NCBI GenBank assembly: GCA_000934665.2
Contig: JYFJ02003767.1
Location: 1 to 37,904, forward strand
From: Catajapyx aquilonaris
Lineage: Eukaryota
Direction of reading: 5' to 3'
DNA length: 37,904 nucleotides
A program made the translations under genes and the position numbers. This document shows positions 6,058 through 37,904 of the stretch, piece by piece (position 1 is the stretch's first letter; each line of letters opens with the position of its first letter). The notes under the pieces are model-generated. The model saw only the letters and a list, made by a program, of their open reading frames with translations, had not been told where the DNA came from and did not search any database.

Positions 6058-9000
6058 AATCAGATTTTTTGTGTGGAGAAAGGTGCAACTTATCACGTGG
6101 CTACGGGTACCGCACCACACATCACACAGTTAACATACATCATATTGCGTCTGGGTATATCATTCGTGTTATATGATCAGTAGTTTCACATGTAGTTTTT
6201 TTTGGCCCCCGCGTGCACACACTCGTTCATTTTTTTTTTTTCGGGTCCGGATAATCACCAATGCACTCTTTTATCCCGAATTTTAAACATTGCGGACACA
6301 TGAAAATGCGAATTTACCTGTACAGTACTGGGAATAACTGCGCAGCACAACGTGGTGTAGCAGCTTTATGTGAAACCATTTGTCTATTTTGGCTACAGCG
6401 AGTGTAGTTTTTGGTAGACTGCTAGTGATTCCGCTGTACAGTGAGCGACGCAGCAGAACCTGATTTTTTTGGCGAAAATCCACAGGAAAAATTTTGTTGC
6501 CTCCTGAATAATGCCCGTGAACCGAATCCATCCGATATCGAATTGCGAATTGGCGCCAAATGCTATATATCCACCACTGCTATACAGTATATAAAAGAAA
6601 ACGAAATACAGATTGCCTTTCGTCGAGTACACACAACGCAATCGACCGCGACAGAAAAAGCCTGCATGCAGTTTTTTTTTTTTCTCCTTAAAAAAAGTCA
6701 GTGTGGTCATCGTCGTGCTCGTCATTGTTGTTGGATCGTAGCAACGAATTTACACTTTTGGGTTGGGATTATAAGAACACACAAACACAGCAAAACAAAA
6801 ACCACAAAAACCACAAAAAAAAAGTTATGCTTCTTCCTCCGAGTTGCGGGGAAGATGACATCGTCGAATGATTTCCAAGCCATGCTGGGAATGACAATTT
6901 TTCTTCCAAAGAAAGTGTATTTGGAAATCACAGCTCAAAAAGTTTTAAGAAGTGTAGAGCAAGGCGGGAGGGTCGTGTTCTCTCTCAATGTGTCGTTTTT
7001 TGTGNCCCCCCATCCTTTTTTTTGTTGAGCAGACTGACGAGGTTATAAAAATCGCAGAGCCTTCCATCTGCATGGCTGAGACAAGTATGTCACTGTTTTA
7101 ATTCTAGTCAATGTCACCCGTTCAGTTTTTGTTTGTACAAAAAATGTATAGTTAGCGACGATAACCGTTATGTTCCCCCAATCTGGATATTATTATTTTT
7201 GAGTGTGTGAGTATGTGTATGGAATATATGGCATGTTGTTGGTAGGAGATCTGCGTTGAGTTCATGGAAACGACGCGTTTCGACGAGTCTAATAATAATA
7301 AAAAAACGAACGCACGTTTTTAAAAATAATAATGAGGGAACAGGAGCTGGTTAGATTACGTTTTACGAAATATTTGCACACCATACTTTTCAATGCAAGT
7401 TTCCTTTTTTTAAAAAAAAAAAAGTTTTGTTTACTAGAAACCGCACCGTAGGATAAGAGAATTTTCATGAAAATATTTGGGACGTGGATATCGGAATCGT
7501 GAAATGGAATTTGGGTCCAAAGGAGAAAAGAGCTTGAACGTTTATAATTTTATATCTCCCTGTGATGAGTTTAGCCAACGAAAAAGAAAGTGATGTAATG
7601 GCAACGGGGGAGGAAAAAGAGAGAAAAAAAGGGGGGAGGCGAAAGATTTCCTACCAACTTTTTTTTCTTGGGCCTGTATGTGCATATTTGGGAGCCTTTT
7701 TTTTTTCCTCAACTTCATCGTGGGTGCGCAGTGCTCGTCATCCGTTAGACCAGCTTGTATGTAGTGCGTCCATTACCAACCAGAAAAAAACAGAGAGAGA
7801 GAAATTATTTCACGTGCAGAGTAACCTGCACGCCATGTTACTTAGGCGGCTGCCACGTTGGAAAAATAAAGCGAGCCAGGTTTTAACCACTGGTTTTTTT
7901 TCCCCGGTAATGTCCTCATTTTTTAAAAAAAATATGGTTCTGAAGGGTTGCATATAACACATGCGAATGTTGCATGCCCCCCACACGTTAATAGGTCACC
8001 AGACTTGGGAATCGATGGCTTCCTTGTCGAAGAGGAGTCATTACGTATGACTAGGAAACCTTGAGGTTTCGATCCATCTACCTGAGCCCCCGTGCAACAA
8101 TGGCTGCCCCACTCGTTTTGCTCAATCTTTAATGGTCAGGAACCCCCTCATTTTAGAGGTCTAATTAGCGAGGGGTTTTGTATGCAGGGCTGGTCGTCTC
8201 CAAGTGCATTCAGGCCCTCTTGCCTCCTCTTCAACGGGGCTCACAATTAGTAATTATGGCGGATGTGGGACCGGAATGTGATCGGGTTGTTTGTGTAGAA
8301 AGTGCGAAAAGATCGATGCAATAATTGGCAGCTGTGTGGCGCTTAACGCCCCAGTTTGTGGCAGGTTGCAGTTTTTGGCACACATACTTGTCAACAGGAT
8401 GGAAATTAATAATTGAAGTGTTGGGCTTCAGGAGCGATTTTTTTTAAAAAGAGAAGCAACAATCATCCTGCATTGTTACCAGACATTCTGCCAGTTCGTG
8501 AAGTGACAGAGGCATCTGGCAAAAAGCAATTAGAGAAATGGGTGAGGACGGAATTTTTAAGATCAGGGTCTCATGTCCATGCCTGCCTGCCGTTGACAGA
8601 ATTTTGGGGGGGATTTTCAATGGAAGGAATTTTTATTGCAGCCTGGTTTGTCTAGCAGGATCTGAAGAAAAAAAAGAGAGAGAGGGAAGTATTTCGGTTA
8701 ATCTGGTTTGAGTGCATACTAACCGCTGCGGGTTGTTCTTATAGGCGATCGAAGGAGTTGGATGCCACGGACGGAAATGGCTTGGGATTCAGCAGGGCCC
8801 CGGTCCAGCACTCGATATCAATATTTTAGGAGGTCCGCCACTGCTGCTTGCTGCTCACGGGTAACCTTACATGGCTGTTCAAGGAAGGGGGGGTTAGAGT
8901 AATCATGCGGACATTTTTTATCCAACCGTTTTTTTTTTCTTCTTCCAGGAGGTGGGCTGCCTTTTGTGTACTAATGCAGAGTGCATGTGGAATGCTGAAG

Positions 9001-11041: not shown

Positions 11042-11630
11042 GTATCAGTTACTGATTGGTAGCTTACTGCAAGTTATGAAGTGCTGCAAGTAAAATGTGT
11101 GCTCCCTAATACCTCATTGGCAATTTTCCAAGTCAACTCTCTCCATGACAAAAAGTGTACTGACCTCTTGACATGCGCTGATGGGGAGGGTGGAGCATCC
11201 AGGCCATTTTGACCTCTGCTCACGTAAGCGCCTAGGATGATGGTGGGGATCTCTGGGCCAAAAACCACCTGCAGGTGATTACCCCTCCCTCTTGGACAAC
11301 CCAGGCTTCATCCACTGCATTGGTGGGGTTGGTTCCCTGCAGCTTACACCTGATCTTGTCAGATATATTTAACATATTATGGAGGTGGTGTTTCCGCCTA
11401 ACAATGTCCAATGTAACATACTGGGTCAACAATCCAATTTTTGTGTCAGCCACAAACATGATTTTTCCATCCAGATTTTCCAGATCCATCTTTTCCATCT
11501 CTGAGAGGTCTTCCTTCAGAAAATTCAGACCTCGATTGAATTTCATTATGAAACGTTTGGATAGTTCCTGCCCAGAGCTAAAGGCATCAATTCGGGGGAG
11601 ATTACGTACGAAAGCCCTGTAAGGCATCCG
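11042..11630 (-). pseudogene. Argonaute-like pseudogene fragment (copy D): MID exon only, with a frameshift and a deletion of most of PIWI
   Basis: Acceptor ccttacag at 11617, then ...FVADTKIGLLTQYV...SDKIRCKLQGTN.... A net insertion of about 11 nt near 11270 shifts the frame before VFGPEIPTIILGAYV. At about 11177, PSPS joins directly to HVKR|gtcagtacac, deleting about 900 bp relative to copy A. Intron homology to copy A continues to about 11042. Confidence 0.85.
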
Positions 11631-11666
11631 TGCCACATACCCCAAGAGGGTCAGGCACAAGGTTTC

Positions 11667-12492: not shown

Positions 12493-15400
12493 CTACGCAA
12501 AATACATAGGGAAGTTTTTGGATAGGCGCTCATGGGTGGCAGTTGCAGATTCCAGGGGCCCCATGTTGTCTGCATCGTATGGCACACCGTCAGCTATGGC
12601 TCTGGAAGTAAATGCATTTTGATTTAGAACCTTCGTCAGAGGAATAATGTCACATGCAATCAGCGTGGTATTTATTTCCCTTGCTGAACTTGTAGAACTT
12701 ACTTGTTTACAAAAGTATCAAGTACAGATTGGTAGCGTACTGCAAATTTTTGAAGTCAGGAAGTGGATGCTGTTCTACACGATCATATTGACAGTTGTCC
12801 AGTGCAACTACTTCTCCAAGATAAAAGTGTACTGACCTATTTACATGCTTCTGTCTCCTACTGGCAACCTTCCTTGCAAAGTGAGTAGGGGTTGTGGTGC
12901 GCACAGTGGCAGTATTTTTCATTGCATTTTTGAAGGACTGGTGGCAACACATTTGTGTGATGTCAGAAACTGAGAGGTCGCTGTCATCCCACAAAAGGTG
13001 GTATCTGGTTGGCCTCAATTTGCCCTGTGGATGTGTGTGCAGAGCATGTTACCCAGCACTTTATATCTATCCTGCACGGTGAATTTCAGGTGAATTTTAG
13101 TAATGAAAATGGGTCAACGTAATTTTCTGATGAAGCTTTCTCATATCAGATGGATTGGACTAAGAGGCAGGGTTGAGTTCTAGTAAGGTAATGTTGAACA
13201 AGGTACTGACCCGTCTTGGATTGTAGCAGATGTTGAATCCAGTCTCCTTTGAAGGGGTAATGGTGTGATTCACTATCACCTTACGGACCATGGTTGAATC
13301 TTCATACTCATCATTTGAGCCCACAGGAGGTATGGTTTTCAACACCCCCACCACTATGAAAGTAATAGCTGGCTTGTAGTCTTGGTGAAGTGATGTGCAG
13401 GCACCACGGATGGCAAGCAACTCCGGCTGCAGCATCTTAAATTCACCATCACTTACTCCTTCCGTGAAAAAAATTATCCGACATGGCTGCTTCTTAGTGC
13501 TCCTGAAATTCAGTGTATGTAACATTTTTGTTATTGCTTCAGGAACAGGTTTTAAAACATTATTTAGGTTAGCATTATCAGTTGGGATCATCAACTGATG
13601 CAGTCTTTGGTTTACCTGAAAAACTGCAGCAGCATGTCCTGTACAACTTCCTGAAGGTCTTGAACAACTGGATCCTGACCTGGCTGCAGCCGAGGGGTCA
13701 CAGTGAAGCGAGTGGCCATCAGGTTGGTGGAGGCACAGATGCCTGCCACTGATGGGGAGGGTGAAGCCCCCTTGTCATTTTCCCCTCTGGTCACATAAGC
13801 GCCTAGAATGATGGTGGGGATCTTCGGGCCAAAAACCAACAAACCTTCCTCTCTGACAACCCAGGTGTCATCCACTGCATTGGTGGTGTTGGTTCCCTCC
13901 ATCTTACATCTGATATCGTCGCACATGCTTGACAGATAACACTGGCGATGCTGGCTGACAGTGTCCAATGTGACACACTTGGTCAACAAACCCATTTTTG
14001 TGTCACCCACATACTTGATGTTTTCAAGATTCGTTGGGTTCTTTCCATCCATAATTATCAAGACCATCTGTAGGTCACGCATCTCGGCGAGGTCATCCTT
14101 CAGTAAATTCAAACCTCTACTGTGTTTTATCATGGATGGTTCAGGTAGGTCTAGCCCAGAACCATGGCTGATCTGGCAGAGAGCATTAATGTAGTCCCTG
14201 TAAGACAAAGTGTAAAGATGCAATACTAATACGCCAACAGGCCCTTAACCTGAATATAGACATGCAATTTGCCCTATAATCACAAGGGAATAATAGAAAA
14301 GAAAGGACCTTTGATTCCTATTACTCTGGTGACATTCATAAACCATGACTCACATTATTTCCTCGTCATTGATGCTGGTCTCTGGTGCCATGATGTATAG
14401 GCCCCAGCTGTGGATTACCATTGGTTCTGCCCACTTTAGAAGATCATGTGTGTACAATACATCAACTCTTGGTGTCTCCTCATCTACATCGGCCTCATAA
14501 GATACTATCAGAGTGTTTGATAACCACTGCATTATTGTCACTCCAACACTTGTTTCTGGAAAGGCCTCATCGATTGTGAAATTAGTGGCTCCCATTCTGG
14601 CCTGACATTGGTCATAAGAGCCAAAAATGCCTGTGATGATAATGCTTGGTTCCTTCTGTTCATCCGGTGACATCTCTCCCTGCCCTCTCTTGATGTGACA
14701 TAGTTCAAGAGGGATATGTTTGGCAATTCCTTCGTGATCTGTCGTAAGGGTTGGAAGCCCTGGGTATCGGATGTGTTTCCCGTAGTGTTCATTATAGTAC
14801 ACCACCAATGACGTAGGGACTCCATCTCGTGAATACTGGCACTCAGAGGCTGGCTCAGACCCAACATCCAACACACGTCTAATGAAAACTTGATGCCGAT
14901 GTTTCCAGATAACCGATAAGCCTGAAGAGCATAAATATGTACTATTACATGCAATGATCAAAGATAATCTTGATGTAATGCTGAGGCCTTAATGCTATTA
15001 GAGTAAATAGCTGTATCAGTTGTCGGAAAAATTCAAACTGGAACTACAAAAAGTGAAATAAAATCTTTAGATGTAAAATTAAAATATGTTCCCAACCCAA
15101 AACTGAAATTGTTCAATTTCGGGCACTCTTGGGACACTCTCATTATTATTTGAATTGGGCGTTGAAACACCCCAGGAATATTTAAAGTCAACATCAAAAG
15201 CAGCAATGTGGGCAGACTACTTCTGAAAAGCAAATTACAACGTATATATAGGTTTACCTTTGATGTGTTTCTTCAGCTCCTCTCTTTGTTGATCGTTTAG
15301 CATGGTGGGTACTTCATTAAGCCCCAGCAGTTTGCACATGTAGTCCAGTGCCTTCTCAACCTTCTTCTTCTTCTCTGTCACTGCAATATGGTTATAATAA

Positions 15401-15693
15401 TATCCAAAATGTAATCAGTATTTTCCAACAATATAGAGAGTATACCAACCAAGAAGTTGCTTCCATCCTATCTGCTGGCTGAGAAAGTCATCTGGCCAAA
15501 TATCTTCCTCTTTCATCTCTTCTCCGAGGTCAGCTGGATCTTCCTCGGATGGGGATGACATGTGAGAGGGTAACACTACTCGTCGTGAGATCTTCACCAT
15601 CTCTTCACCAGCAGTGTTCTGCTGTGGAGTGATCTTTTCCATGGAGTGGTCAGCCTGCTCGGACTCTGGGAGAGCTGTAGATGACACTTCCAT
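12493..15693 (-). CDS. Divergent Argonaute-like protein, copy A (about 701 aa; 7 exons: 15693-15450, 15380-15258, 14921-14354, 14197-13616, 13502-13211, 13024-12837, 12601-12493). Short acidic N-terminus, degenerate L1, then PAZ-L2-MID-PIWI; slicer-dead
   Basis: PAZ: YYNEHYGKHIRYPGLPTL...HIPLELCHIKRGQ. MID: IKYVGDTKMGLLTKCV. PIWI: PTIILGAYVT, PSVAGICAS, STKKQPCRIIFFTEGVSDGEF, AIRGACTSLHQDYKPAITFIVV, GKLRPTRYHLLWDD. C-terminus is MYFA*. All introns are GT-AG with consistent phases (2106 nt CDS). Confidence 0.88.
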
Positions 15694-17634: not shown

Positions 17635-20600
17635 CTAAAGAAAATACATGGGGAAGTTTTTAGACAGGCGTTCATGGAGAGCTGTTGCAGATTCCAGAGG
17701 TTTCAGATCCTCTCTGTTGTAGGGCACTCCAAGAGCCATCACACTGGAAAGGACAAGTCTGAATTTAGTCCACATATAATTGCACACGGCACAACACACA
17801 GTCTAATTTTTGAATCATTTCCACAATCGATGCTGAGAGAAGGGCAGAAGGTATGAAGAAGGGAAAATATTTTTAGCATTTTACAAACACCCTGTAACTC
17901 CTCTAAAAATAAGAGCGTGGAAATTTCGCATTGTAGTGCAGCCCAGAGGCGAATATGTAAAGGGGGCGAAAATTACAGGGACGACAACTCTGGGGGCGAA
18001 AGCTCCAGGAGGCATAAAAAGTATGGGCCACGACTCCTGTTCCAACCCTTGTATGAGCACAATTCAAAAAAAAAAAAAAAATGCATGCTGAGTTTAAATT
18101 TTAAAATTGATCAGGTCTGCAAAAGAGAGTGCGGTGAGGGAATAAAAAAGGCATTTCAATTTTAATTCTAAAAGTTCAGAGATAGGGACGTTTTGGAGAT
18201 ATTACAGTATCGGAAACAGACCATCAGAATGGTAATCTCTGAAAACATGTTCACTGGGTTACACTGTAGAAACACCGTAACTCAAAAACTGGGTGAGGGT
18301 GAAAGTCATATGCATGCCCGCACTAACCCCTACTGAGTCAGGTGGGATTAGGGCCGGGTAGTTACCAAGAAAGTAAAATGTAAATAACTGACCACTTGAT
18401 GAACCGAAACCTCCTTTTGGTAGCCTTCACTGCATAGTAGTAAGGGGCAGTGTTGGCTTGCACATAACCTCCTCTTTTAGCGAAATTGTCAGGAAAGCAC
18501 AAGTGGATGCCTATTTGTACAATGTCATCCACTGAGAAGTCACTGTCGTCCCAAAGAATAAAATAATCCACTGGCTTCAATAAGCCCTGGAAGGATAAAA
18601 TCAGGAATTAGCATACCAGGTTATATCATTATCATTCTACATTGACCATGGTAGAAATGACATAGACTGACTTTCAGGGAACACATATACATTCGCATGA
18701 AGAAAGTTCATGAAACAGTGATTGTCGTGGTGTGAATGGATAAGTATTTACATTTCCTGGCCGGTAGCACACATTGAATGGAGTCGTACTTGTGGGGGTC
18801 AAAGTGCAATTCACTACTGTTCCTGAAAATCCATGGTTTATGAGCTGCGTCTCATTTTTCCTGCATTGTTGCCAGGAATGGACATCAGTGTTAGCAACCA
18901 TGCAAGTGATGGCTGGCTTGTAGTCAGGGTGGAGGGATGTGCAGGCACCGCGTACTGCTAGAAGCCAGTTGTGCAATGCATCATAGGAATGATTGCTAGT
19001 CAGTTCTTCCATCAAGATTATTACTCGGCATGGCTGCTTTGTGGTGCTCCTGAAAAGCAGTTCATTAAAATACATCTTTATTCTTCATTTAAGCACAGCT
19101 TTATTTAGGAACAGTTATTAATTTTATTATGATACTTGTTTGGTTCATGCTGGGCATCTTAAGCTTACTTAGACCATACCTGAAAAACATAAGAAGCATG
19201 TTCTTCGCAATTTCCTGAAGGTCTCTGATATTTTCTTCCCCACTAGGCTGCAGCCTAGTAGTTGTAGTGAATCTGGTGGCTATCAAGTCTGTGGAGGCGC
19301 ATACGGCTGCCACTGACGGGCAGTTTGGCGACCCCAGCATATTAATATACGCACTCAGAATGATGGTTGGCAACTCCGGGTTAAATATCACACGATCTAC
19401 AGCAAACTGGGCACCATATGACAGGTTTGTCATACTGGATCCTGCCATCATGGCACTCATATCGTCAGACAGCTGAGACAGAAACTGTGCACGCCTTGCC
19501 ATGAAATTCTTTTTGCTCACACACTTGGTCAGCACTCCCACTTTTGTGTCGGCTACAAGCTTGACAGCGGATACCATGCCCTTGACGCACATAACTACCA
19601 GCACAATTTGCAGATCACACATATTTGCCAGGTCATTCTCCAGGTTTTGGAAGAATCGTATTGTGGAAGGTTGCGGTAGTTCCAGCCCATGGCCAATGGA
19701 ACTGATTGCACGCAGCGGTGTGACAAATCTCCTGGGGAAGTTATGAAATATGAGTAGTTGATCTCTTAATAATTCATTCACAAAGTATAATTGACTCTGA
19801 CAAGTGAGTGGAAAGTAAGGATGGGTTCAATTGTGACAAGTACAAAAATGACTATTACTCACTCTATGTCACTGAGGCTGATCTCTCCCACGACATATAT
19901 ACCCCAGCTCTTCACAATCAGCTTATGGCCAGTTGACATGTCCAAGTAGTTAAGTCCACCTGCAGTCATATCAGAGCCCTGCACGCATTCAGTGGCATGC
20001 TTCGCACCTTGCTTAACAATCTGTAAGCCTGGAAAAAAATGAAATGTGCATGAACATTATGTAATGTAATGGTACACAACTATCAAAATTTTCATTGGTA
20101 AGCATAATTCTCACCTACCTGAAGTACAGGGTCATTGGTACTAAAATAAGTCCTTGTTTTGGTGTCCAACATAAAAGGAGCATCAAAAGTTAGACAAGTC
20201 AAAAGAAGTAGTAGTGTGAATGGACCTTTTAATAATTGGTACGGATTGATCGCGTTATTTGTGTTACAATCATATTCTAGTTGTAGTACCTTTTATGCAC
20301 TTCGTCAGCTGTTGCTTTTGCTGGTAATTCAGCTGCATGAAGACATCGTTAAGCCCCAGCACTTTGCACATAAAGTACTTCAGAACTGGAAGTGCCTCTT
20401 CAACCGTCTTCTCTGTCACTGCAATGGTTATATCCAAAATGTAATCAGTATTTCCCAACATGACAATAAGAGGACCAACCCTTAATAATCCCCTTCCATC
20501 CTATCTGTTGCTTCAATAAGAAGTCATCTGGCCAAATATCTTCCTCTTTGCTTTCTTCTCCTAGCTCAGCTGGGTCTTCCTTGGATTGAGATGACACGTC

Positions 20601-21248
20601 TGAGATGACATTTAGGCTCCCAGGCTCTGAACTTATCACCTGGAGCACTACTGGTGCTTCCTCTGGATTAGTCGAAGCACAGGCAATGATTTCTTGGTTG
20701 GAGGGAGTTATCGCAACCAGCTTTGTGCCACGCTGAAGGTATAACATATATTGAGATGTCAGCTGTACATCTCCCTTGCGATTAACCTTCACCTCATACT
20801 TATTGATACATAGAAAGTTATGTTGCATTTCATTTTCAAGCAAACGAATGTAATACACATGTTTTTTCTTATTTTCAGGATTAAGAAATAAAGTGTGTCA
20901 GACACTTACTTCGCTCACAGCATCATCAGACTTGGTAGCCACTTCACGCTTGTTCCTTCCAACAATAGGGAGGTCATCATCCTGGGTGCCTGTGGTGGAA
21001 TCCCCTGCTGACAATCTCGTCTGTGAGACTTTCTCTTCACCAGATTCATTTTGTGGTGGAATTATCTTTCCCATGGAGTGATCAGTGATCTCCTGTGCAT
21101 GACCTTCCTGCCCTTGCCCTTTCTCATCTCCAGCAAGGGACTGACGGAAGCCAGGATCACCTGAAGCTTTGGAGTCAACCGAGGATCCGTGTGTGTGAGA
21201 TGTCGTGGCAGGCTCAGAAGATGAGAGAGTGGGAAATATCGCACCCAT
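17635..21248 (-). CDS. Divergent Argonaute-like protein, copy B (about 679 aa; 8 exons: 21248-20910, 20732-20480, 20418-20290, 20028-19863, 19731-19180, 19049-18752, 18586-18393, 17743-17635). PAZ core deleted in frame; MID-PIWI retained; slicer-dead
   Basis: Motifs VKLVADTKVGVLTKCV, PTIILSAYIN, PSVAAVCAS, AVRGACTSLHPDYKPAIT, LKPVDYFILWDDSDFS, APYYYA; C-terminus MYFL*. Exon 4 is 166 nt versus 577 nt in copy C. All splice sites are canonical and the frame is intact (2040 nt). Confidence 0.85.
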
Positions 21249-21818
21249 TTTGGACGGACGGTCCGCACCAAAAGGGATGGCCTTGAAGCGATGATGGCTG
21301 GATTTCACTGCTCTTTCCAATCCCTGCTGTAGTAGTCTCCATGTGCTTGGGCACCTCTATCTAACCTAACCAAGGTTGCCAGTAACCAGCCTAATTCCCC
21401 CCACCAGCCACCAGAGGATGCATCCAGGGGTTTAAAATAATATCAGTTAGTATCATAAGTTATATAGTTTGAGATATTAGTTATTTGCTGGACTTAGCAG
21501 CCTTAAAATAACTGTTAGACATTTTTTTTTAACATACAGTACATTACCTGCACAGAGATTTGCATCGATCTAGCCTGTCATCTGCACCTGTAATTGTCAT
21601 TATTGCTTTCGTTAAAGTGTATCACCTTACGTCAAAGGTTACCTTCAAATTACATCGGTACAATAATTTAACTCTGCACAAACGTAACGCTGGCAACAAA
21701 ATGTCAATGTGTAGGATTCACTACAGAAGGTTTGACTGCATGAGTAATGTACACACACACACAATTACCTGAAATGTGAAAATGATTTAAAAGCGTTATG
21801 CCTTGATAACAATCAGGT

Positions 21819-21824
21819 TTTATT
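21819..21824 (-). terminator. Polyadenylation signal of Argonaute-like copy C
   Basis: AATAAA on the - strand about 155 nt after the stop, homologous to the copy B signal. Confidence 0.5.
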
Positions 21825-21979
21825 GACACACAAAATAAGAAGTAAAAAGAGTTGTTTTCCAATTACAAAAAGGAGGGCTGATTATTTCACTACTATGGTA
21901 ATACAAATGATCATTTTAAACTAAGAGAATTAAAAAATAATAATTCAAACCACAAGTGCAAAAGTTTTGCTATTTCCTC

Positions 21980-24900
21980 CTACATAAAATACTTGGGGAA
22001 GTTTGTGGACAGACGCTCATGGATAGCTGTTGCAGATTCCAGAAGTTTTAGATCCTCTTTGTTGTAGGACACTCCAAGTTCCATGGCGCTGGAAAGTAGG
22101 AGTCTCAATTTACAACACGTAATTGCACAGGTATTAACAGAGAGTGTGATTTTCGCATTGCCACAGTTGATGCTGAAGTAAATATTTTTCTACGTAATTG
22201 TCTTTAGTGGAACTAACTCACACTACTACCTACAGGGAAATAATGGGGCACTGGCATGTTTTCACGATTCTAAAAAGGTTCAATTCAATTTTTCAAAGTT
22301 ATGGTATGTGTTTAGAGATACTCTTTTCTTCCGGAGGTGGAGAAAGGTCATTCACAAGCACTGTGACTATCCTAAATCTTTGAAACCCCTAAGGTGGTGT
22401 ACATAACAGACCAGTTTACGAGCCGCTGCCTCCTCTTGGCAGCCATCGATGCATAGTAGTAAGGGGCAGTGTTGGCGGGCATATTACTGGATCCTCTTCT
22501 AGCAGAATCCACAGAAAAGCACAAGTGACTGGCTATTTGTACGATGTCATCCACTGAGAAGTTACTGTCGTCCCAGGGGAGAAAATACTTCACTGGTTTC
22601 AATAGGCCCTGGAAGAGGAAAATCAGGAATTATTATTTTATCATTGTGATCTTACATGGTAGGAATGACATAGAATCACTTTCCGGTCACTTGGTTTTTC
22701 TCTGTGCCCATCCAGTAACTTAATGCATATTCTACCAACTCCCAAGGTGTGGGCTGGAATGCGATTAGGGTGAGGGGATGGTTATACAAGTCGGCAGGTT
22801 GGGAAAAGGTTGCAATGAAAAAAAGCTGTAAGTAAATGAATAAGTACTTAACTTTCCTGGTTGGTAGGGTAGATTGAATGGTGTCTTCTTTGCAGGGGTC
22901 ACACCGTGATTCACTACTGTTCCTGATAATCCGTAGGTTGTAAGACTGACCTCATTTTTCCAGAACTGTCGCCAGGAATGGACATCAGTGTTGACAACAA
23001 TGAAAGTGATGGCTGGCTTGTAGTCAGGGTGGAGGGATGTGCAGGCACCACGTATTGCTAGAAGCCAGTCGTGCAATACGTCATGGGACTCATTGTCAGA
23101 CAGTTCTTCCATCAAGAATATGATTCGGCATGGCTGCTTCTTAGTGCTCCTGAAAAGTGGTTATCATTACATCACCTATTCTTTATGGGAGCAGTCACCA
23201 AACTCAGGACAATGTTTGCAAAGTCTTATTTAGACCATACCTGAAAAACATTTGAAGCATGCCCTTCACCATTTCCTGAAAAGCTCTGCTGACATGTTCT
23301 TCTCCAATAGGTAGTAGCCGAGTGGTTGTGTTGAAGTTGGTGGCCATCAAGTCTGTGGAGGCGCATACTGCTGCCACTGATGGGACGGCTAGCGACTCCT
23401 TGGCGAGCTCCTTGGTCACATGTGCACTCAGGATGATGGTTGGCATTTCCGAGGTAAATATCACATGCTCTACAGCAACCTGGGTGCCATACCCCAGATG
23501 TGTGACACTGCTGGAGCCTTCCATCATGGCATTAATATTGTCGGACAGCTGAGACAGAAACTCTGCACTCCTTGCCATGAATTTATCTTGCGTGATGCAC
23601 TTGGTCAGCACTCCCACTATTGTGTCAGCTACAAACTTGACACGGGGAAGCAAGACCTTGTCAGACAGAACTACCACCACCAACTGGAGGTCACGCATCT
23701 CTGATAGGTCCTCCTGCAGGAGGAGTACATCTTGGGAAATTTTTATTATGGAAGGCAGGGGCAGTTCCAATCCATGGCCAATAGAACTGATTGCACGGAA
23801 CTGCTTCACAAATCCCCTGGGGAAGTAATGAAATATTAACAGACCTTTTAATGATCACTTATAAGTTAGTGGAAAGGAAGGGTTGGTTCAATCTTGACAA
23901 GTAGTACAGAAAGGACCCATAACTCACTCTATGGCACCATTGGTAAGCTCTGCGATGACATATATACCCCAGCTCTTGAGAATCGTCTTACGGTCTGCCA
24001 GCACATAATTATTGATTCCCCTTTCAGTCATCTCACCATCTTCCTCATGTGCCCCGCTTGTCTGTCCTCCCTGGGTCTTTGGTGCCATCTCCTGTGCCTG
24101 TTCGTCACAGCCAGCACATGCATTTTGCAACGTGACCTGCTGGCAGGCCTTATCAACCTCCATTAAGTCCATGGGTCTGTCTGGATTCTGCTTCTGACAG
24201 TGGTTGGCTTCCAATGTCCCTCTGCTTGGGGTCTCATCCTTGGTCACCCTCTTTATTATTTGCCCTTCTTTTATCCAACCAATTTCCATGGGGATTCGTT
24301 TCATGTAATGTACTACCCCACATTCCAGAATAGGGAGCCCTGGATAGCGGAGATAGGTCTCATAGCGTTGAGCAAAGTAATCTGCCACTGTAATTTGCCT
24401 GACTCCTTTCCAAAAAAATTCAGACTCAGAAGCTGACTTGGATCCAACATCCTCCACGCGTTCAGTGGTAAGCACATGACCACGTTTATATTCAATCTGT
24501 AATCCTGGAAATAATGACATGTGTATGAGCATTATTGTATACATAGTAACTATATGTAACCATCGAAATTAGATTTGTGCACTATTATCTTCTTTGTTGC
24601 ACAATAAATCACAACGTAGAGCTCTGTACCTTTTATGTACTTCATCAGCTGTTCCCTTTGCAAGTCGTCCAGCATGGTGGGTACTTCAGTAAGCCCCAGC
24701 ACTTTGCAAAGAAAGTCCAGAACTGGAAGTCCCTTCTCAACCTTCATCTCTGTCACTGCAATGGTTATATCCAAATTGTAATCATTATTTCCCAACATGA
24801 CAGTAAGAGGAACCAACCCTTGATGCTCTTCCATTCTATCTGCTGGCTGAGAAAGTCATTTGGCCAAATATCCACCTCTTTCCTCTCTTCTCCTAGGTCA

Positions 24901-26524
24901 GCTGGACCTTCCTTGGATGGGGATGACATGTGAGAGGGTAACACTTGGTCATTTGAGATGGCAGGGACATCTGGACTCATTCCCTGGACCACTACCGGTA
25001 ATTCCTCTGGATGAGTCGAAGCACAATCAATGACTTCTTGGATGGAGGGAGTTTTCGCAGCTGGCTTTGTCTCACCCTGAAGGTACAGTTGAGAAGTCAA
25101 AACCTTCACATGCTCCTTGTGATTAACCTACACCTCACACTGAATGCATTGATTCCTTTTCAACCAAACACATCCATTTTTCATGGCACCTCTATGGCAC
25201 CCTGACACATTTGAACATACAGTACATTTCCGTAGCCGTCTCTTACATACATTATGGAATGTCAATTTCTCATCATTTAAATTACTCAAGTTCAACTAGC
25301 CCATTATTGTGATTTTATCTGTTACAGACTCACCTCGTCATTTACAGCTCCATCGCCATCAGACTTGGCAGCCACTTCATGCTTGATCCTCCAGATGAGG
25401 AGGCCATCATCCTGGGCTCCTTGAAAGTTTGTGGTTGAATCTGCTGGCGGTGACAAACTCTTCTGTGTGGTCCCCATCATCTCGTCACCAGGATCAACCT
25501 CACAGTGAGTATTATTCTGTGGTGGAGTTGTCATCATTCCCATGGAGGGATCAGTGATCTCCTGGACCTGACCTTCATCCTGCCCTTGTCCTTTCTCGTC
25601 TGCAGCAAGGGACTGATGAAAGCTAGTGTCGCCTATAGCTCCATACATCTCTCCATCATCAGCCATCAGGTCATCCTTGGTTTCTTGCTGGAATGTTGTG
25701 GCCGAATCTGCTTCTGACAAACTCTTCTGCGAGATCTTCAGCATCTCAGCATCAGAGTCAACCACATGGTCAGTATTATGTGAAAGAGCTATCTCTACCG
25801 AGGAGCGATCAGTGATCTCCTCCCCTTGTCCTTTCTCTTCACCAGTAAGGGGCTGATGACTGTCTGTGTCACCTGAAGCTTCATTCATCTCTCCGTCATC
25901 AGCCATCAGGTCATCCTTGGTTTCTTGCTGGAATGTTGTGGCCGAATCTGCTTCTGACAAACTCTTCTGCGAGATCGTCAGCATCTCAGCATCAGAGTCA
26001 ACCACATGGCAAGAGCTAATAAGCTCTTGCACATGGTCAGTATTATGTGAAAGAGTTATTATCTCTACCGAGGAGCGATCAGTGATCTCCTGCACTTGAC
26101 CTTCCTCCCCTTGTCCTTTCTCGTCACCAGTAAGGGGCTGATGACTGTCTGTGTCACCTGAAGCTCCATACATCTCTCCATCATCAGTCATCAGGTTATC
26201 CTTTGTTTCTTGCAAGTTTGTAGTTGAATCGGTTTCCATATTGTTCACTGAGAGCTTAATCATCCTTTCGACAAGGTCAACCATGTGATCAGTGTCCTGT
26301 GACGGATTCATCTTGTCCTTGGGGGGAAGGGTGATTTCCTGAATCTGATCATCCTGATTTTCATCTTTCTCATCTCCAGCAACGGAGTGACGGGACGAGC
26401 CAGCATCACCAGATGCTTTGTCGTCAACCAAGGACAGGGAACAGTGAGGATCGACATGAGATGACTGGGACGGAGCAGGCTCAGCAGGCTCAGATGCTGG
26501 GAGAGTAGCAGATGTCACATCCAT
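21980..26524 (-). CDS. Divergent Argonaute-like protein, copy C (about 1110 aa if intron 6 is spliced at the homologous site; exons 26524-25334, 25076-24818, 24755-24630, 24504-23928, 23816-23241, 23149-22852, 22608-22412, 22088-21980). Long acidic repeat N-terminus, then PAZ-MID-PIWI; slicer-dead
   Basis: PAZ: TVADYFAQRYETYLRYPGLPILECG...IPMEIGWIKEGQ. MID: VKFVADTIVGVLTKCI. PIWI: PTIILSAHVT, PSVAAVCAS, AIRGACTSLHPDYKPAITFIVV, KYFLPWDDSNFS, APYYYAS. Ends KYFM*. The intron-6 donor reads AAG|TTAAGT, which is non-canonical. Confidence 0.8.
25410..26420 (-). repeat. Coding tandem repeat in exon 1 of copy C: about 4 units of about 80-95 aa (ASGD..HQ.L.GDEKGQG..QEITD..S...DS.T..Q..KDD)
   Basis: Sequence at 25681 and 25921 is identical over more than 50 nt (240-nt period). 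The repeated peptide is visible in ORF 25322..26569. Confidence 0.9.
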
Positions 26525-28567: not shown

Positions 28568-29573
28568 TTAATCTTCAGGGTATTCCATTTCCTCTGCCCA
28601 CTTGTAGAATGCATGTAAGCCATTTGCGAGTATCTCTTTGTGCCCATTGCAGCTCAATGGCAATGCATCGCGGTCCAAGGCCACTACTGTAGGGATTGAT
28701 GTGATCTCGTAGTGCTTAATCAGCGAGCTGCCAAGAAAAGGTTGCATAAATTATTATTTTGCATAACATGTAACAAGCTAAGAAGCTAACACACTCATAT
28801 TTATATCCGCAGGCATATAGTTGCAATATATGATGCTCAAAATAATGGAGGACCATAATATACTGACTTATTGAAGGTGTCTGAAAAGGGAATTCCAAGC
28901 CAGTCCCCATGGAATTCCAGCATCTGTTCATTCATATCAGCTTGTGACAGGTCGCGGCTCACATACACGATTTCAACCATTGGTCGCAGGCACTGTGGAA
29001 AAAAAGGCCTTCCTTTACTGTTCGCCTGTTCAGTACCCTGTAGTACGGTATGTAATGCATGCAGAGAAATTTTTCACCGGAACTCACTTTATAGAATTTG
29101 ACCAGACGTGGTAGAAAAGCGCTGCATGGCACGCTCCATCCTGCTCCAAAGTAGAGGGCAAGGATACTCTTTGGATTTAGGGCCTCTTCGGCTGCCACTG
29201 ACAGCAGCTTCTTCTCATACTTGCGGATGAGCCTCTTTCCTGCAAACAGGCGTGAGTACCACTCAGGTAGTGACTCGCTTGAGGTAAATGTGCAGTCAAT
29301 AGAGGGAGAGGAGGTAGAGGCTAAGTCAGGAGAAACATCCGATCCGCCAAGAGAATCGTCATTGCTGTGATCTTTCTTGGTGCTAAGAGAATTCGCACTG
29401 CCAAGAGAATCCTCACTCCCCAGGTATTCTTCTGGGTCTTCGCTCTTCCTCTGCGGGATCATTGATGACATGTCTGTTAATCTCTGGTTCCTGCCACCAG
29501 ATTGATTACCAAAATATGAGTCACTCGTGTTGATCTCTGTTGCTGTGGAAACAATACCGTAATTGTTACTGAC
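28568..29573 (-). CDS. Nucleoredoxin-like/tryparedoxin-like thioredoxin-fold protein with an SxxC site and a Ser/Asp-rich N-terminal extension (exons 29573-29088, 28992-28868, 28727-28568; 5' exons unresolved)
   Basis: Motifs ALYFGAGWSVPCSAFLPRLVKFY, VEIVYVSRD...EFHGDWLGIPFSD, YEITSIPTVV...NGLHAFYKW. Canonical splice sites with consistent phases. TAA at 28570-28568; AATAAA at 28142-28147. Confidence 0.85.
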
Positions 29574-29946
29574 CTGCACGTAAAGGCATGCAAAGTGTGA
29601 CTTTAATTAGCCTGAAGGGCATTATCACAGGATGTGCTGGTGCACAAGCTAATGGGACCAAAACGTGAATAACAACAACAAATGCATGATACCAACAGAA
29701 AATTACTTTGCTTAGTCGGACAGCCTAATTGGACCACTTTTTTGAGCGCATGGAGATGCATGCGCGGTACAGCCAACAGCGACAATGAATCCTTGTCAGT
29801 ACTGCAATATGTGACCAATTACTCAAAGGCTGCAGCCACTGTGATGACGCTATGCAATGCCACAATGAAAGTGATGATTTGAGGAGAAAATTGTTGGACA
29901 AATGGGAGCAAAATGTCTGAAGACAAAGAAACTGAGGGATGTGATG

Positions 29947-32526: not shown

Positions 32527-32762
32527 ATATCAATAATCTGTTGGCGGGGTTAGCCTCCCAAAAAGGAAGTGCACATTTTTTTGTAGATACCATCAAGAGA
32601 CTCTGAATATTATTTTAGAAATGGGGTATCTATAGCGAGTAATCAATCTTTAGATTAATATAAGCCCTCAAAGAAATGCGACTAATGATAAGTACCAAGA
32701 CAACCACTGCTGCGTCATAAGCAGGAGGAAAAGTATAAAATGGACAAACCCACAGTAATATC

Positions 32763-35700
32763 ATGCGTTTCAAGTTCATGAAAATGAAAGTGAAGCAAGT
32801 TACTTGGTGCGTTCTGATATGCTTCATTGGACTTGTATCATCCAAGGTGGTAGTCAGAGGTGGAGGCTATGAGGGCATAGTTGTCGCCATTAGTAGTGAT
32901 GTTGAACAAGACTGTGCCATTGTCATGAACATTGAGGTCAGTGATTTTTCATTGGTAAACAATTTTTTTTAAACAGTTTACAACTATGACAGGACATGCA
33001 AGAATCATGTTCACTAGAAATATTTTGCATCCATCTCACCTGCTAAAGAGGTTGCATTTTAACTGTTTATGCAGCTAACTGCAACATACAGTAGAATTCC
33101 ACAGCCTCTTCATTTCAGGCCTCCTTCATATTGGGGTCCAGGTACTTTCATAAAGTGTCTGGAGGAAGATATTTTCGCCATGTGAAGATTATAGTTCCAC
33201 ATACATTTGACATATCTCTATGTGGAAAGCGCACGTCGGGAGCTGCTCCAGCTGGAATCTGGTCTGATGTGTCTCTCTTGATTGGCCAAACTCATCCTCT
33301 ATTTGGGGACAATCCATGGACGCAACAGACTGGGGGATGTGGGAAGCAAGGAGAATACATGTACTTCAGTGAAGGATACATGCACAATCCTTCAAAAGCT
33401 GTTCCTGGTGTGATGCAAGGTATCAAGTCTTAATTACATTTTTATAACATAGTTATACAACATGGTTGTTTTATTCTAGGTCGCATGCTTGTCAAGGAGT
33501 GGACAAAGTATAGGTATGGAGTATTTGATGAAACTGGATTTGTTGGGGATGAAATTTATCCACCACAGTACTTGAATGAGACACATGCATTACCAAATTT
33601 GTGCTCCAATGCAGACACTTGGTAAGTTGAACTTTATATTATGACGACTTGTGTGTGAAGTGTGAGAATATAACAAAACATTGTATTTAACAGGGCTTGC
33701 AATGAGACGCTGGATATAAATTGCATGATCGTCCCGCCACCTGATGTTCCAAATCATGCCTCAACATCTGTCATGGCCCTGCCATACTTGCCAGAGGTAA
33801 GGAGTACTTCATTTGTGGCAATATTTACACTTCCCTTACAGGGTATTCTGAGCAAATACTTGTTTGCAGGTGGATGCTTATTGTGATGACACAAACCACA
33901 AAGCCTTCATTCCAACCAAGCACAATGCAATGTGTATGGGACAGAGTGTTTCAAAGATTGTAAATGAACATGCAGATTTTCAAGGGTAAGTTTTGAATGA
34001 AACACTTATATTTAATGGTCTAACTTAACTTCACAGCATAAACAGTCATGTAATATGCAATTTTTCTTTTCAGTCCTGATGGTCAGCCTGCAACTTATGC
34101 TGATCCTACATTCACGTATGTGAAATCACAAATGCCAAGACTATTTGTCTTGTATGAAAGTAGTCAAGCCATGAACCAAAGAGTAAGCTACCCAACGATT
34201 TCAGTGACTGCCCATGTTTTTTTTTGCATAATTTGATTGCTATATCTCATATCATAATTTCAGAGTGTCTGGAAATATTTGTACAAAGCATTGTCCATGA
34301 TGATCTTGTATGAACTGCCAGATGAAATGGAGTTTGGGATGATCTCTTTCAATACGGGCACCACTACTGTACAGCCTCTCATTACTCTGGACTCAACCAA
34401 CAGAATGGATGTTGTCAATAAGTTCTTTAATAGAAATTATCCAAACGCGTCAATACCTAGCTCAGATGTCATGTTATACACAGCTGTGCATGGTGCTGAT
34501 CAGGTAATAGACCATATTTTCATGTATAGTACAGGGGAAAATGCAATCTAAAAGAAAACTTTCCACTACAAATTATTATGCACAGTATGAGCAATAATTG
34601 TGCAAGAGTGAACTGTCAGGAATGACAATAAGTCACACATATTTGTCATAAATGCCTCCTATTTTCCTCCAAACACAATATGTTAAAAGAAACCCAAACC
34701 CAAAGTACACACATCTAAACTCTTGATAATCATAACAATAGAGATTCTTGTGTCAGAATTTCATTTCTTTAGCCTTCCCATTAAAGTGCTCTTTTATTGA
34801 AAATGTCTTTGCATTCCCTTCATGTCACTAACTCTTATTAGTGAAATGGATGACTCTGGCACCAAATGATCAGGCGGTGAATGTAAGATTTTATTTTTTA
34901 AAGGTGTAAGCAATGTAATCCTCGATTTTAATCATCTGCAAACTTGATAAAGAATCAACATTAGTAAGGCCAGTCTTAATATTGTGTTTCACGTATTCTC
35001 GTGCATTTTTTTGCCATGTAGGTCTATGTAACTTAGCTTTTGCATTCAACAGATATACAATATTTAAAGATGACTGTGTGTACCATGCAAATCCACTTTT
35101 GAATGGTACAGACTATACTAGGGACTTAATTGTTATGATAGATGATTCTGACCATGTGATACATCACTAATGTTTACTCTATTTTTGCAGGAGTTTGGCT
35201 TGATGGAGGGAGATGCAGTAATCCTGATTACCGCAGTTATGGCTACATCAGCTCGCGGTGCTGATGTGAATGACACCATTGCCCTGTTGTTGAGTAGGAA
35301 GACTTCACTGGCAGTCATAGAGTATCCAATTGCCACTGGGTTGTCTCAAGCTTTATTACCTGTTACACATGGAATGGGCTTCTCTGTTCCTGAGACTGAA
35401 ATAGATAACAAATCCACCTTAAAGACCCTGATGGGATTGAATGATGCTCTGATTCAAATTCAGGATTATTTTATTCCTCCAGGAATAGGAGGACAACCAG
35501 TGGTGGTGAGTAGGCTAATATACAGGGTGGTCGGTAAATGGCGGAAAAGCTTCAGGTAGCGAGATTCCTTGTGGAAAACCAGTATATGGAAGTGAAGGTC
35601 ATATTGCTCTACGAGGCCTGGTTAGGGCTCACGAGGTCTCCAAAGTTTGGGCCCAATCATGACGTCACATCCGCCTGCGAAATTCAAACACTACCGTATC

Positions 35701-37744
35701 GCTACCGTACGCGGTGCATTGCCAGGGGTTGCCAAGTTGACATCCCCCTCATTTCCACACAACAATGGAACCGTATGAACTGGCTGGGACGTTGCCAGGC
35801 ATTGCCATACCGTCGTCGCTGCGTGCCTGGCAACGTCAGAGGGAGTTTATACGGTTCCATTGTTTGGTGAAAATGTGGGGGATGTCAACGTGGCAGCAAA
35901 CTGTGTACTGTAGCGATACGGTATTGTTTAAATTTTGCGGGCCGATGTGACGTCATGATTTGGTCCAAACTTTGGAGACCTCGTGAGCCCTAACCAGGCC
36001 TCGTAGAGCAATATGACCTTCACTTTCATATACTGGTTTTTCACAAGGAATCTCGCTACCTGAAGCTTGTCCGCCATTTACCGACCACCCTGTATAGAGG
36101 AATCTTTCCTAATGATATTATGTGAACTGAATACAGTAATCTAGACCTTTTAACATACACCACATTGCAGATACACAGCAAATTGTATGATGGTAATGCT
36201 GAAACTGTTGGAGACACATTCAGAGCAGAGTTGGATTTGGCAACAAACATCCGTTTCTTCCTATTTGTCTGGGATATTGATAATCCCTGTCTGTCTGCAG
36301 AATCCCTCACTAGTCCATCAGGCAAAAAATATCCAGAAGCCCCTCCTGACATCATCGTCAATGCATTACTCATCCCAGAAGTGTTGAATGAGGTAAATAG
36401 TAACAGATATGGATTGGCATAATATTTATCCTGCATGGCAGGTAGACTTTGTTAAGATGTTCATATTTAAGTAAAATAATGATCATTAAGTAGTTGTGCT
36501 AGTATGGGATGGCTGATATTTAGACACACGATATATATTTGAATCATCAGCATTCAATTATGGTAATAATGATGCATGGTTTTTTGCACTTTCTCAACCA
36601 ATGTCACATAATTTCTCATTACACTGCAGTATTTTATATGGTGTCCTTCCTTCTGAGGTTGCAGCACATTATTTGACCAATTTAGGATGGAGGAATTTAG
36701 CAAGGATTTTGCAAGGGTATAAAGGTTGAGAAACGCTGGATTATGCCATACTATACACTACTACATGTACTAGAAGATAGACCAGAGGAACAAGACTGTC
36801 ATTGTATCCATTTCCATTTGTTTGATTGGTCTCTCTCTCTTTTTGCATTTCAATTGCTAATGTGATGTCCTTGTCATCTGGAATCTGGAGTAAATGTATG
36901 GTATTGTGAGACTGAAGCTTAAAATGGCATAAAATATTAATAATTGCCTCCTTTGGAAACTACCAACATAATAGTCATAGTCATGTAACTTACCAGTATT
37001 TGTATGTTGCAATGGATTTGATGACAAATAGATTGTGGTGTGCAATATTGTGACACTTTAGGCCTATTCATAGTTGCAGTAACGTACTAATGCAGCAATG
37101 TATTTTTTTTCTCCTCTTAAAATGTTCAGACTGGTCCATGGAGATACAGCTTTCATCAGCTACAATGTGACCAGCAGCGCTACGTCAGAGTCATTGGAAG
37201 AGGAAACCAAAAAAAAACACCAAAAACCTCTATAAAGCTCACAACAAGTGCTCAAGGTGATAAAGCAGATGTGAGCGAAAGACCTCTGGCTGTTTATGTA
37301 CAGGTAACTCTCACTTACGTGTTTCTTTTGTTAATTTTTGCAGATGCATGTATTATAATTATGCTTCAATGGACACTTTCATTTATGTGTAGGTGACAAG
37401 TGGCAACTTGCCAGTGTTGAATGCTACAGTCAGTGTGTCAGGAACTCCTCCATCAAAGTCTCTGAAAGGCACTGTTTCACTTACTTTATTAGACAATGGA
37501 AATGGAGGTAAGAGGCATTTACTTATTTTACTATAATAATTCTTATTGTATGTGCTGTGTAAGTCAAAAGGACTGTTTAACAATATTTACTACTTTACAG
37601 ATCCAGATGTAACTGGGGGAGATGGCGTCTATTCTGGATACCTGCTGGCTACGTCTGAGTCTGGACCATACGCCTTGAGAGCAGTTGTCACAGCAAATTA
37701 TGACACTTATACCATATACACCATATCTGAAAGACTTCCTGCAT
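32763..37744 (+). CDS. CLCA: Calcium-activated chloride channel regulator (CLCA)-like secreted protein, 3'-incomplete (exons 32763-32936, 33119-33419, 33480-33621, 33694-33796, 33870-33985, 34074-34182, 34264-34503, 35191-35505, 36171-36392, 37130-37303, 37393-37507, 37601-37744)
   Basis: Signal peptide followed by GGYEGIVVAIS. Motifs RYFRHVKIIVP, PWTQQTGGCGKQGEYMYF, VKEWTKYRYGVFDE, CDDTNH..PTKHN.MC, a vWA-like region, LTSPSG, GPWRY, PVLNATV, LLDNGNGDPDVTGGDGVYSGY. All introns are GT-AG with consistent phases. Confidence 0.9.
35523..36092. mobile_element. 570-bp foldback MITE (Tc1/mariner-type ends) in CLCA intron 8
   Basis: TA|CAGGGTGGTCGG...CCGACCACCCTG|TA with a TA target-site duplication. 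Arms are complementary for about 279 bp around a loop of about 22 nt (35802-35823). Confidence 0.92.
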
Positions 37745-37904
37745 GTAAGCTATTCTGTCATATCAAGAGTTTGGAAGCTTCTCATTGCCCCAAGTTATTA
37801 ATTACTGGTGCATTTTGAGTTTCACTAGGCAGGGGCTGGCATTAATAAGATAAGGAAGAGGGTAGAAATTCACTTAAAAGGCTAATGCACCCTACCGATA
37901 CTAG

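Follow-up and report, generated by a model that had tools for sequence, protein, structure and literature searches.

By the usual account, eukaryotic Argonautes are obligate six-part proteins, composed of N, L1, PAZ, L2, MID and PIWI, in which the PAZ domain holds the 3' end of the guide RNA. A 37,904-nucleotide (nt) stretch of DNA from Catajapyx aquilonaris (contig JYFJ02003767.1 of GenBank assembly GCA_000934665.2, positions 1 to 37,904, referred to here as the window) raises the question of whether an animal Argonaute gene can lose the core of this domain and remain a gene. Three Argonaute-like genes (A, B and C) lie in tandem on its minus strand together with a broken fragment (D), and copy B has an exon 4 that is much shorter than its counterparts in A and C. 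An earlier reading of the letters alone (the sequence-only reading) had described B as a PAZ-less, MID-PIWI-type eukaryotic Argonaute produced by an in-frame deletion, and had proposed convergent minimisation to a short-Argonaute-like protein. Our analysis confirmed that exon 4 of B is short by a true net in-frame deletion, with both splice sites and the reading frame retained. Whether this real deletion lies in a gene that is still coding, or was until very recently, is a claim for which we find the case about evenly balanced. The loss of PAZ looks like further erosion of a family in which canonical guide binding had been abandoned before, and not like convergence on the short Argonautes of prokaryotes.

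The window reads as animal-type nuclear DNA, with GT-AG introns and a plus-strand gene encoding a CLCA N-terminal domain. The Argonaute-like genes were located by six-frame open reading frames (ORFs), Pfam profiles and tblastn with two full-length reference Argonautes. For the gene models, all in-frame GT..AG pairs were enumerated for each intron, and the site that was homologous across the three copies was retained (Table 1).

The deletion in exon 4 of copy B

In the model of B, the acceptor TTTTTTTCCAG and the donor GTGAGT delimit exon 4, whose translation starts GLQIVKQGAKHATECVQGSDMTAGGLNYLDMSTGHKLIVKSWGIY. This exon is 166 nt long, whereas its homologues measure 577 nt (C) and 568 nt (A); the difference from C is 411 nt, or 137 codons, and these figures of the sequence-only reading were confirmed by the gene models and by alignment. 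In the global DNA alignment of B with C the loss falls into a 112-nt and a 299-nt gap in B, which are separated by an 8-nt remnant, and the minor flanking indels cancel each other (-3, +3). The segment is present in A, in C and in all reference Argonautes, and therefore the change is a deletion in B. The layout left in B consists of an N-terminal region, a PAZ stub, approximately 23 linker residues, MID and PIWI.

The exons of C and A both exceed the Pfam PAZ (PF02170) cut-off of 28.8 bits, at 41.7 and 39.0 bits, respectively; exon 4 of B matches neither Pfam PAZ nor any other Pfam family at E<=0.1. Residues 36-110 of the C exon align to residues 305-376 of human AGO2 (hAGO2), and the PAZ of both A and C matches the AGO1 PAZ structure 1r4k. 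By extrapolation from the hAGO2 alignment and from that of MID, the piece missing in B corresponds to approximately hAGO2 286-425. With hAGO2 domain limits that we take to be 229-347 for PAZ and 348-445 for L2, the lost piece takes in that half of PAZ which binds nucleic acid and some three quarters of L2. The earlier statement that B has lost its PAZ core and most of L2, with splice sites and frame kept, thus holds in the gene models and in the B-C alignment, with the qualification that the name L2 is positional only: it rests on the location between PAZ and MID, and Pfam finds no ArgoL2 in A or C.

Two ways in which B might still encode a PAZ core, or might have kept its frame by another route, were considered and rejected. 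When the residues of C exon 4 were searched by tblastn, only the two flanks matched inside the B gene, and neither the interior of the exon nor a displaced PAZ piece was found there; an ORF within intron 3 has no Pfam match. The extra PAZ exon, named in the sequence-only reading as something that would overturn it, was looked for within B and not found. Skipping of exon 4 is also incompatible with the frame, since the frame leaves exon 3 in phase 1 and must enter exon 5 in phase 2, a step that requires the 166 nt (1 mod 3).

Sequencing reads were examined in three of four DNA runs, all from one sample of one study and possibly the assembly's own source; the four runs contain 82-86% of the sampled B-gene words. 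A 224-nt k-mer contig, present in 3/3 runs, spans 19758-19981 and includes the downstream deletion junction and the remnant, and a second contig covers position 20002 with at least 35 letters on either side; the read k-mers thus contain both deletion junctions. No joint, insertion or loose end was reported at the deletion site in the three runs, and the downstream-junction contig, with depths of 45.9, 28 and 23.2, lies at the upper end of local depths. In 3/3 runs the contig 19758-19981 has its end precisely at 19981/19982, the upstream edge of the remnant, with no variant listed at 19982. A further run of unknown kind (X5) gave no match over 18000-22000, and no RNA run was listed for 18300-21400; neither result bears on expression.

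These data bear on the explanation that the short exon does not represent the fixed form of the gene, being either an assembly problem or one haplotype of a structural polymorphism in which the alternative allele has a longer or complete exon. The recurrent contig end without a variant points to a branch in the read graph, and all supporting runs come from the same sample. Because the runs may be the source of the assembly, they exclude a scaffolding error and do not exclude polymorphism. The read-derived contigs nevertheless include the remnant and both flanks, at a site with no reported loose end, joint or insertion, and the contig with the downstream junction is among the deepest locally; we consider this explanation improbable. 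On the assembly artefact considered in the sequence-only reading, the reads are thus favourable with respect to both junctions, and they leave the contig end, with polymorphism as its possible meaning, standing beside them.

Copy B as a coding gene

Copy B contains no premature stop, frameshift or broken splice site, whereas D carries a frameshift and C a TT dinucleotide in place of a donor GT. Homologous exons of B and C differ in length by a multiple of three in 8/8 cases (six of them non-zero) versus 2/7 for introns; for B and A the figures are 6/6 exons versus 3/6 introns. An in-frame net length of the deletion is by itself a 1-in-3 chance; what is not trivial is that all 679 codons have stayed in an open frame. 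When neutral decay was simulated in 2000 replicates, a frame of 679 codons was still open in 0.15% of them at 0.10 substitutions per site, a value equal to about half of the 22% divergence between B and C introns. Compared with C, B has a ratio of nonsynonymous to synonymous substitution rates (dN/dS) of 0.60 over its whole length and of 0.63 within MID-PIWI. Variants in the reads within B exons comprise nine nonsynonymous and nine synonymous changes (binomial P=0.025 versus 74% nonsynonymous, where the 74% share for neutrality is an assumed value not derived from the codons of B). Judged by its 679-codon frame and by its introns, all seven of which are GT-AG, B was maintained as coding sequence for most of its history.

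Several observations weigh against a gene that still functions. At 0.02 substitutions per site, the simulated frame remained open in 24.5% of replicates, so that a gene which lost its function only recently, after the deletion, would look no different. The 112-nt and 299-nt gaps are each frame-shifting alone, and a single-event origin is assumed for them. The variants in B exons may stem from a near-identical paralogue and not from alleles (18 lie in exons and seven outside). Polarised with A, the B branch is 1.6 times as long as the C branch (170 vs 108 changes, P=0.0002), and its 121 nonsynonymous to 49 synonymous changes are near the expectation for weak constraint and do not differ significantly from those of the C branch (75:33, Fisher P=0.79). 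The splice model is drawn from sequence logic.

The same observations supply much of the case for B as a dying paralogue, in which the deletion (in frame by the 1-in-3 chance) or an earlier change recently ended function and the frame has not yet been hit. Gene death is evident elsewhere in the array, in the frameshift of D and in the TT that replaces the intron-6 donor of C; the B branch is accelerated, with a nonsynonymous to synonymous count near neutral; residues of the MID pocket are lost in B, as described below; and no relative above 35% identity was found among 1.84 billion representatives, which gives no sign of conservation beyond the locus. Set against this are the 7/7 canonical splice-site pairs, the 679 codons without a stop, the 9:9 split of read variants, which suggests ongoing constraint if the variants are alleles, and a frame that has clearly been preserved since B and C split. 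We regard the dying paralogue as a serious possibility, though it is not the explanation we would favour. The PAZ of C might also be supplied to B by read-through transcription, with splicing from C exon 4 to B exon 5: the two genes share a strand, the end of C lies approximately 730 nt upstream of B, and homologous exons have identical intron phases, so that a C-B chimera would keep the frame. B nevertheless possesses a homologous ATG and first exons of its own, and such a chimera is a pure possibility that we judge extremely improbable.

Affinity of the family and comparison with other Argonautes

The solved structures that best match the array are human AGO2, AGO1, AGO3 and AGO4, in agreement with the earlier assignment of B to the eukaryotic Argonautes. 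The MID/PIWI exons of A and B align to hAGO2 468-655, 504-654, 657-754 and 759-815. Exons 5, 6 and 7 of B match successive positions of the Pfam Piwi profile (PF02171), 14-139, 141-243 and 240-299 of 302, with 25.5, 14.8 and 23.5 bits; each score is under the cut-off of 28.9 because the introns split the domain, and a single exon of A reaches 53.9 bits. Structure prediction covered exon 5 of B alone: the AlphaFold (AF2) model, built on a 41-row alignment, has a mean predicted local distance difference test (pLDDT) score of 88.3, and its best fold match is hAGO2 (E 6e-10, TM 0.61). Among the approximately 45 chains listed in the fold search (ranks to 50), all are eukaryotic Argonautes and all but two are human AGO1-4. 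The comparison by AlphaFold that had been suggested thus places hAGO2 at the top, within the limits of one exon. From the sequence matches to human AGOs and the fold neighbours of exon 5, the A/B/C family is assigned to the AGO clade, neither to the PIWI clade nor to the prokaryotic Argonautes. The C-terminal end of the copies (...MYF(L/A/M)) also resembles that of the references.

All three copies depart from the canonical design in other respects than PAZ. When the whole window was searched by tblastn with the two full-length references at E<=1, no high-scoring segment pair began before residue 304 of 958 (P0001) or residue 264 of 855 (P0003); no N domain or L1 is therefore detectable in A, B and C, although very diverged remnants of them may persist. 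An acidic low-complexity N-terminal region is found instead, of 61 residues in A, 175 in B and 463 in C, where it is expanded by a 240-nt repeat; in B it is followed by approximately 60 residues homologous to the start of PAZ. The slicer tetrad (D597-E637-D669-H807 in hAGO2, or DEDH) defines slicing members only. At these positions B has Y, E, E and a gap; D597 is replaced by H in C and Y in A, and E637 is E in C and P in A. D669 is E in A and C, and H807 is S in C and R in A, the residues at these last two positions having been read from the A/B/C alignment through the mapping of B and not from direct alignment with hAGO2. The tetrad is thus degenerate in all three copies. The 5'-phosphate pocket of hAGO2 is formed by Y529, K533, Q545, K566 and K570. 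Of 38 representative Argonautes, 38 carry Y529, K566 and K570; at these positions B has V/D/M, C has L/N/M and A has L/D/K. The array copies keep K533 and C546, and K533 is the only one of the five pocket residues that B retains. A search of the 1.84 billion cluster representatives gave 155 matches at E<=1e-3, the best with 35% identity, and a word-based search found no close relatives of B exon 5 (E<=1e-3) or of the MID/PIWI exon of A (E<=1e-8).

Compared with human AGO1-4, the copies share the MID/PIWI alignments of A and B, the PAZ of A and C, the fold of exon 5 and the C-terminal end; they differ in having no detectable N domain or most of L1, no DEDH tetrad and no Y529/K566/K570, and B additionally has no PAZ core and lacks most of the PAZ-MID linker. 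Short prokaryotic Argonautes are described as MID-PIWI proteins paired with APAZ-effector partners (PMC6299218, PMC10954474). B resembles them in that the PAZ core is absent and the PIWI domain is, as predicted for B, catalytically inactive. It differs in having arisen from a long eukaryotic AGO through a recent deletion within the gene, in retaining the N-terminal region and the PAZ stub, in having no partner gene in the window, in having no PADLOC match and in its degenerate pocket for the 5' end of the guide.

These differences decide how far B may be regarded as a convergently minimised sensor that works with a separate effector protein in the manner of short prokaryotic Argonautes. Beyond the two shared features, a eukaryotic MID-PIWI lobe can be a stable unit, as reportedly seen in a crystal structure of the QDE-2 MID-PIWI lobe. 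The losses of slicer, N domain and pocket are shared by A, B and C, however, and therefore predate the deletion in B. None of the four exons searched (three of B and one of A) matches any of 5027 PADLOC models at E<=0.1, and the fold and sequence neighbours are the eukaryotic AGO1-4. No APAZ-like or effector partner gene is found within the window, in which B is flanked by its paralogues A and C and matches among the other ORFs are limited to thioredoxin-like and CLCA N-terminal domains. Short prokaryotic Argonautes use the 5'-phosphate pocket for the guide, and in B this pocket is degenerate. The designation of B as MID-PIWI-type was also overstated, given that approximately 175 acidic N-terminal residues, the PAZ stub of about 60 residues and the linker precede MID. 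The convergent minimisation proposed in the sequence-only reading thus found no support, and we consider a short-Argonaute-like sensor very improbable.

Two further systems offer partial parallels. Med13, a Mediator subunit, has an Argonaute fold with a diverged nucleic-acid interface that is proposed to preclude Argonaute-like guide binding; it is described as keeping all six domains including PAZ, with a long disordered insert, and as ancient and conserved (PMC12477606; Med13 as an Argonaute-like Mediator subunit is also the subject of PMC3702460). The array copies, likened to it by description and not by sequence, are in contrast lineage-restricted, tandem and fast evolving. For the Argonaute of Giardia lamblia, a protist single-copy gene reported to be essential for growth, domain analysis gave PIWI without PAZ, and sequence alignment still identified PAZ (PMC2583053); by that account its PAZ is diverged and not deleted, whereas in B the segment is physically absent. 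No metazoan PAZ-less Argonaute was found described in the open-access literature, where the reports found of Argonautes lacking PAZ all concern prokaryotes, and no lineage-specific tandem Argonautes matching the A/B/C array were found there. B, if functional, would be a new variant among known Argonautes.

We propose that B is a real paralogue in a tandem, lineage-restricted, fast-evolving birth-and-death array of highly diverged AGO-clade genes. The whole family had left the canonical design first, as seen in the undetectable N domain, the acidic N-terminus, the dead slicer tetrad and the altered 5'-phosphate pocket. What we take to be one complex deletion in exon 4 of B (net 411 nt, with the 8 nt as a remnant or filler) then removed the RNA-3'-end-binding PAZ core together with the greater part of the PAZ-MID linker. 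With canonical guide anchoring presumably already compromised, PAZ may have been dispensable in the family, and its loss in B tolerated. If made, the B protein would be non-slicing and unable to hold the 3' end of a guide, and would be neither a guide-loaded effector nor a sensor in the style of short prokaryotic Argonautes; it would most probably act through protein contacts of the MID-PIWI lobe or of the N-terminal region. Competition with A or C for partners is an example of such a role, which we offer as the most economical guess.

In its strong form, this proposal says that the animal expresses, under selection, an Argonaute-derived protein without an N domain or a PAZ core and nearly without L2, that is, a MID-PIWI lobe on a disordered tail, in a family without slicing or canonical guide anchoring. 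We hold that to be doubtful, although if true it would represent metazoan reuse of the Argonaute MID-PIWI lobe for a guide-free or unconventional-guide role. A functional B would be a natural test of what a lone MID-PIWI lobe can do in an animal cell, and the locus would show the decay or repurposing of Argonaute paralogues following tandem duplication. If B is silent or polymorphic, the locus would simply record one moment in the birth-and-death evolution of a fast-evolving Argonaute cluster; if B is non-functional, it would be a case of ordinary gene decay.

Gene models of the array and its surroundings

The coordinates of the three copies, of the exons of B and of the fragment are collected in Table 1.

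Table 1. Argonaute-like features on the minus strand of the window (positions are those of the window)
Feature	Position	Strand	Description
Copy A	12493..15693	-	7 exons (15693-15450, 15380-15258, 14921-14354, 14197-13616, 13502-13211, 13024-12837, 12601-12493); 701 codons
Copy A, exon homologous to B exon 4	14354..14921	-	568 nt; PAZ core present; Pfam PAZ 39.0 bits
Copy B	21248-20910, 20732-20480, 20418-20290, 20028-19863, 19731-19180, 19049-18752, 18586-18393, 17743-17635	-	679 codons; 7/7 introns GT-AG
Copy B, exon 1	20910..21248	-	ATG 21248-21246; acidic low-complexity N-terminus
Copy B, exon 2	20480..20732	-	Remainder of N-terminal region; ends ...EEDIWPDDFLLKQQIGWKGIIK
Copy B, mini-intron 2	20419..20479	-	61 nt, GT..AG
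Copy B, exon 3	20290..20418	-	PAZ-homologous region begins (...PVLKYFMCKVL...CIKG)
Copy B, exon 4	19863..20028	-	166 nt; end of PAZ stub, deletion scar, start of MID lead-in (...KSWGIY...)
Copy B, remnant between gaps	19974..19981 (19981-19974)	-	8 nt, CAGGGCTC, matching P-G-L codons of the RYPGLP motif of C
Copy B, exon 5	19180..19731	-	MID and first part of PIWI; Pfam Piwi 25.5 bits; hAGO2 504-654
Copy B, exon 6	18752..19049	-	Middle of PIWI; hAGO2 657-754
Copy B, exon 7	18393..18586	-	C-terminal part of PIWI
Copy B, exon 8	17635..17743	-	Carries stop codon (...HERLSKNFPMYFL*)
Copy C	21980..26524	-	8 exons (26524-25334, 25076-24818, 24755-24630, 24504-23928, 23816-23241, 23149-22852, 22608-22412, 22088-21980); 1110 codons if the intron-6 TT donor (TTAAGT) is read through
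Copy C, exon 4	23928..24504	-	577 nt; PAZ core and PAZ-MID linker, the undeleted state; Pfam PAZ 41.7 bits
Fragment D	11131..11648	-	Lone A-like MID/PIWI exon, frameshifted; pseudogene piece

Copy C, which retains PAZ, has AAG/TTAAGT at its intron-6 donor (22846-22852, minus strand), where B has AAT/GTAAAT and A has CGG/GTCAGT. No in-frame GT or GC donor in this intron pairs with the homologous acceptor, and the closest GT, located one base upstream, shifts the frame into an immediate stop. Given this donor, copy C may be defective or differently spliced. Its exon 1 contains a 240-nt tandem repeat (25578-26009, minus strand; 1.8 copies, 91% matches), of which further diverged units are visible in the protein. 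Fragment D is 46-57% identical to A and is split by its frameshift, and the other exons are absent nearby. In the N-terminal region A is nearer to C (nucleotide identity 0.78, synonymous divergence dS 0.29) than to B (0.63), and elsewhere A is equidistant from the two (0.58-0.59); the nearness of A to C suggests gene conversion or a mosaic history within the array.

A mini-intron is located at the same site in all copies, 61 nt long in B, 62 nt in C (24756-24817) and 69 nt in A (15381-15449), all on the minus strand. Each length exactly offsets a different frame relation of the flanking ORFs, namely +1 in B, +2 in C, and 0 with an internal stop in A. A coding reading of the segment, possible in frame for B and C, fails in A, where it brings an in-frame stop and a net shift of +8, and the mini-intron model was therefore used for all three copies. 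Between B and C the mini-intron is identical at 58/61 positions, compared with 73-81% identity in the remaining six introns. In a different reading frame the mini-intron resembles the canonical "MLNIDVS" strand of the L1/PAZ border, which has no counterpart in the spliced proteins, and it may be intronised coding sequence. Its retention would truncate the protein just after the N-terminal region. A conserved RNA structure in the mini-intron was not supported (consensus fold of -3.95 kcal/mol, 0/19 pairs covarying).

Outside the array, the sole ambiguous base of the window is one N at position 7005, far from the Argonaute genes. On the minus strand, 28959-29606 has a weak thioredoxin-like match (PF13905, E 8e-4). 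The plus-strand neighbour at 32739-37818 is a multi-exon CLCA-like gene, with the CLCA N-terminal match (E 1e-7) at 33095-33433, and inside it lies an inverted pair of near-identical ORFs of approximately 130 amino acids, at 35538-35870 on the plus strand and 35702-36077 on the minus strand.

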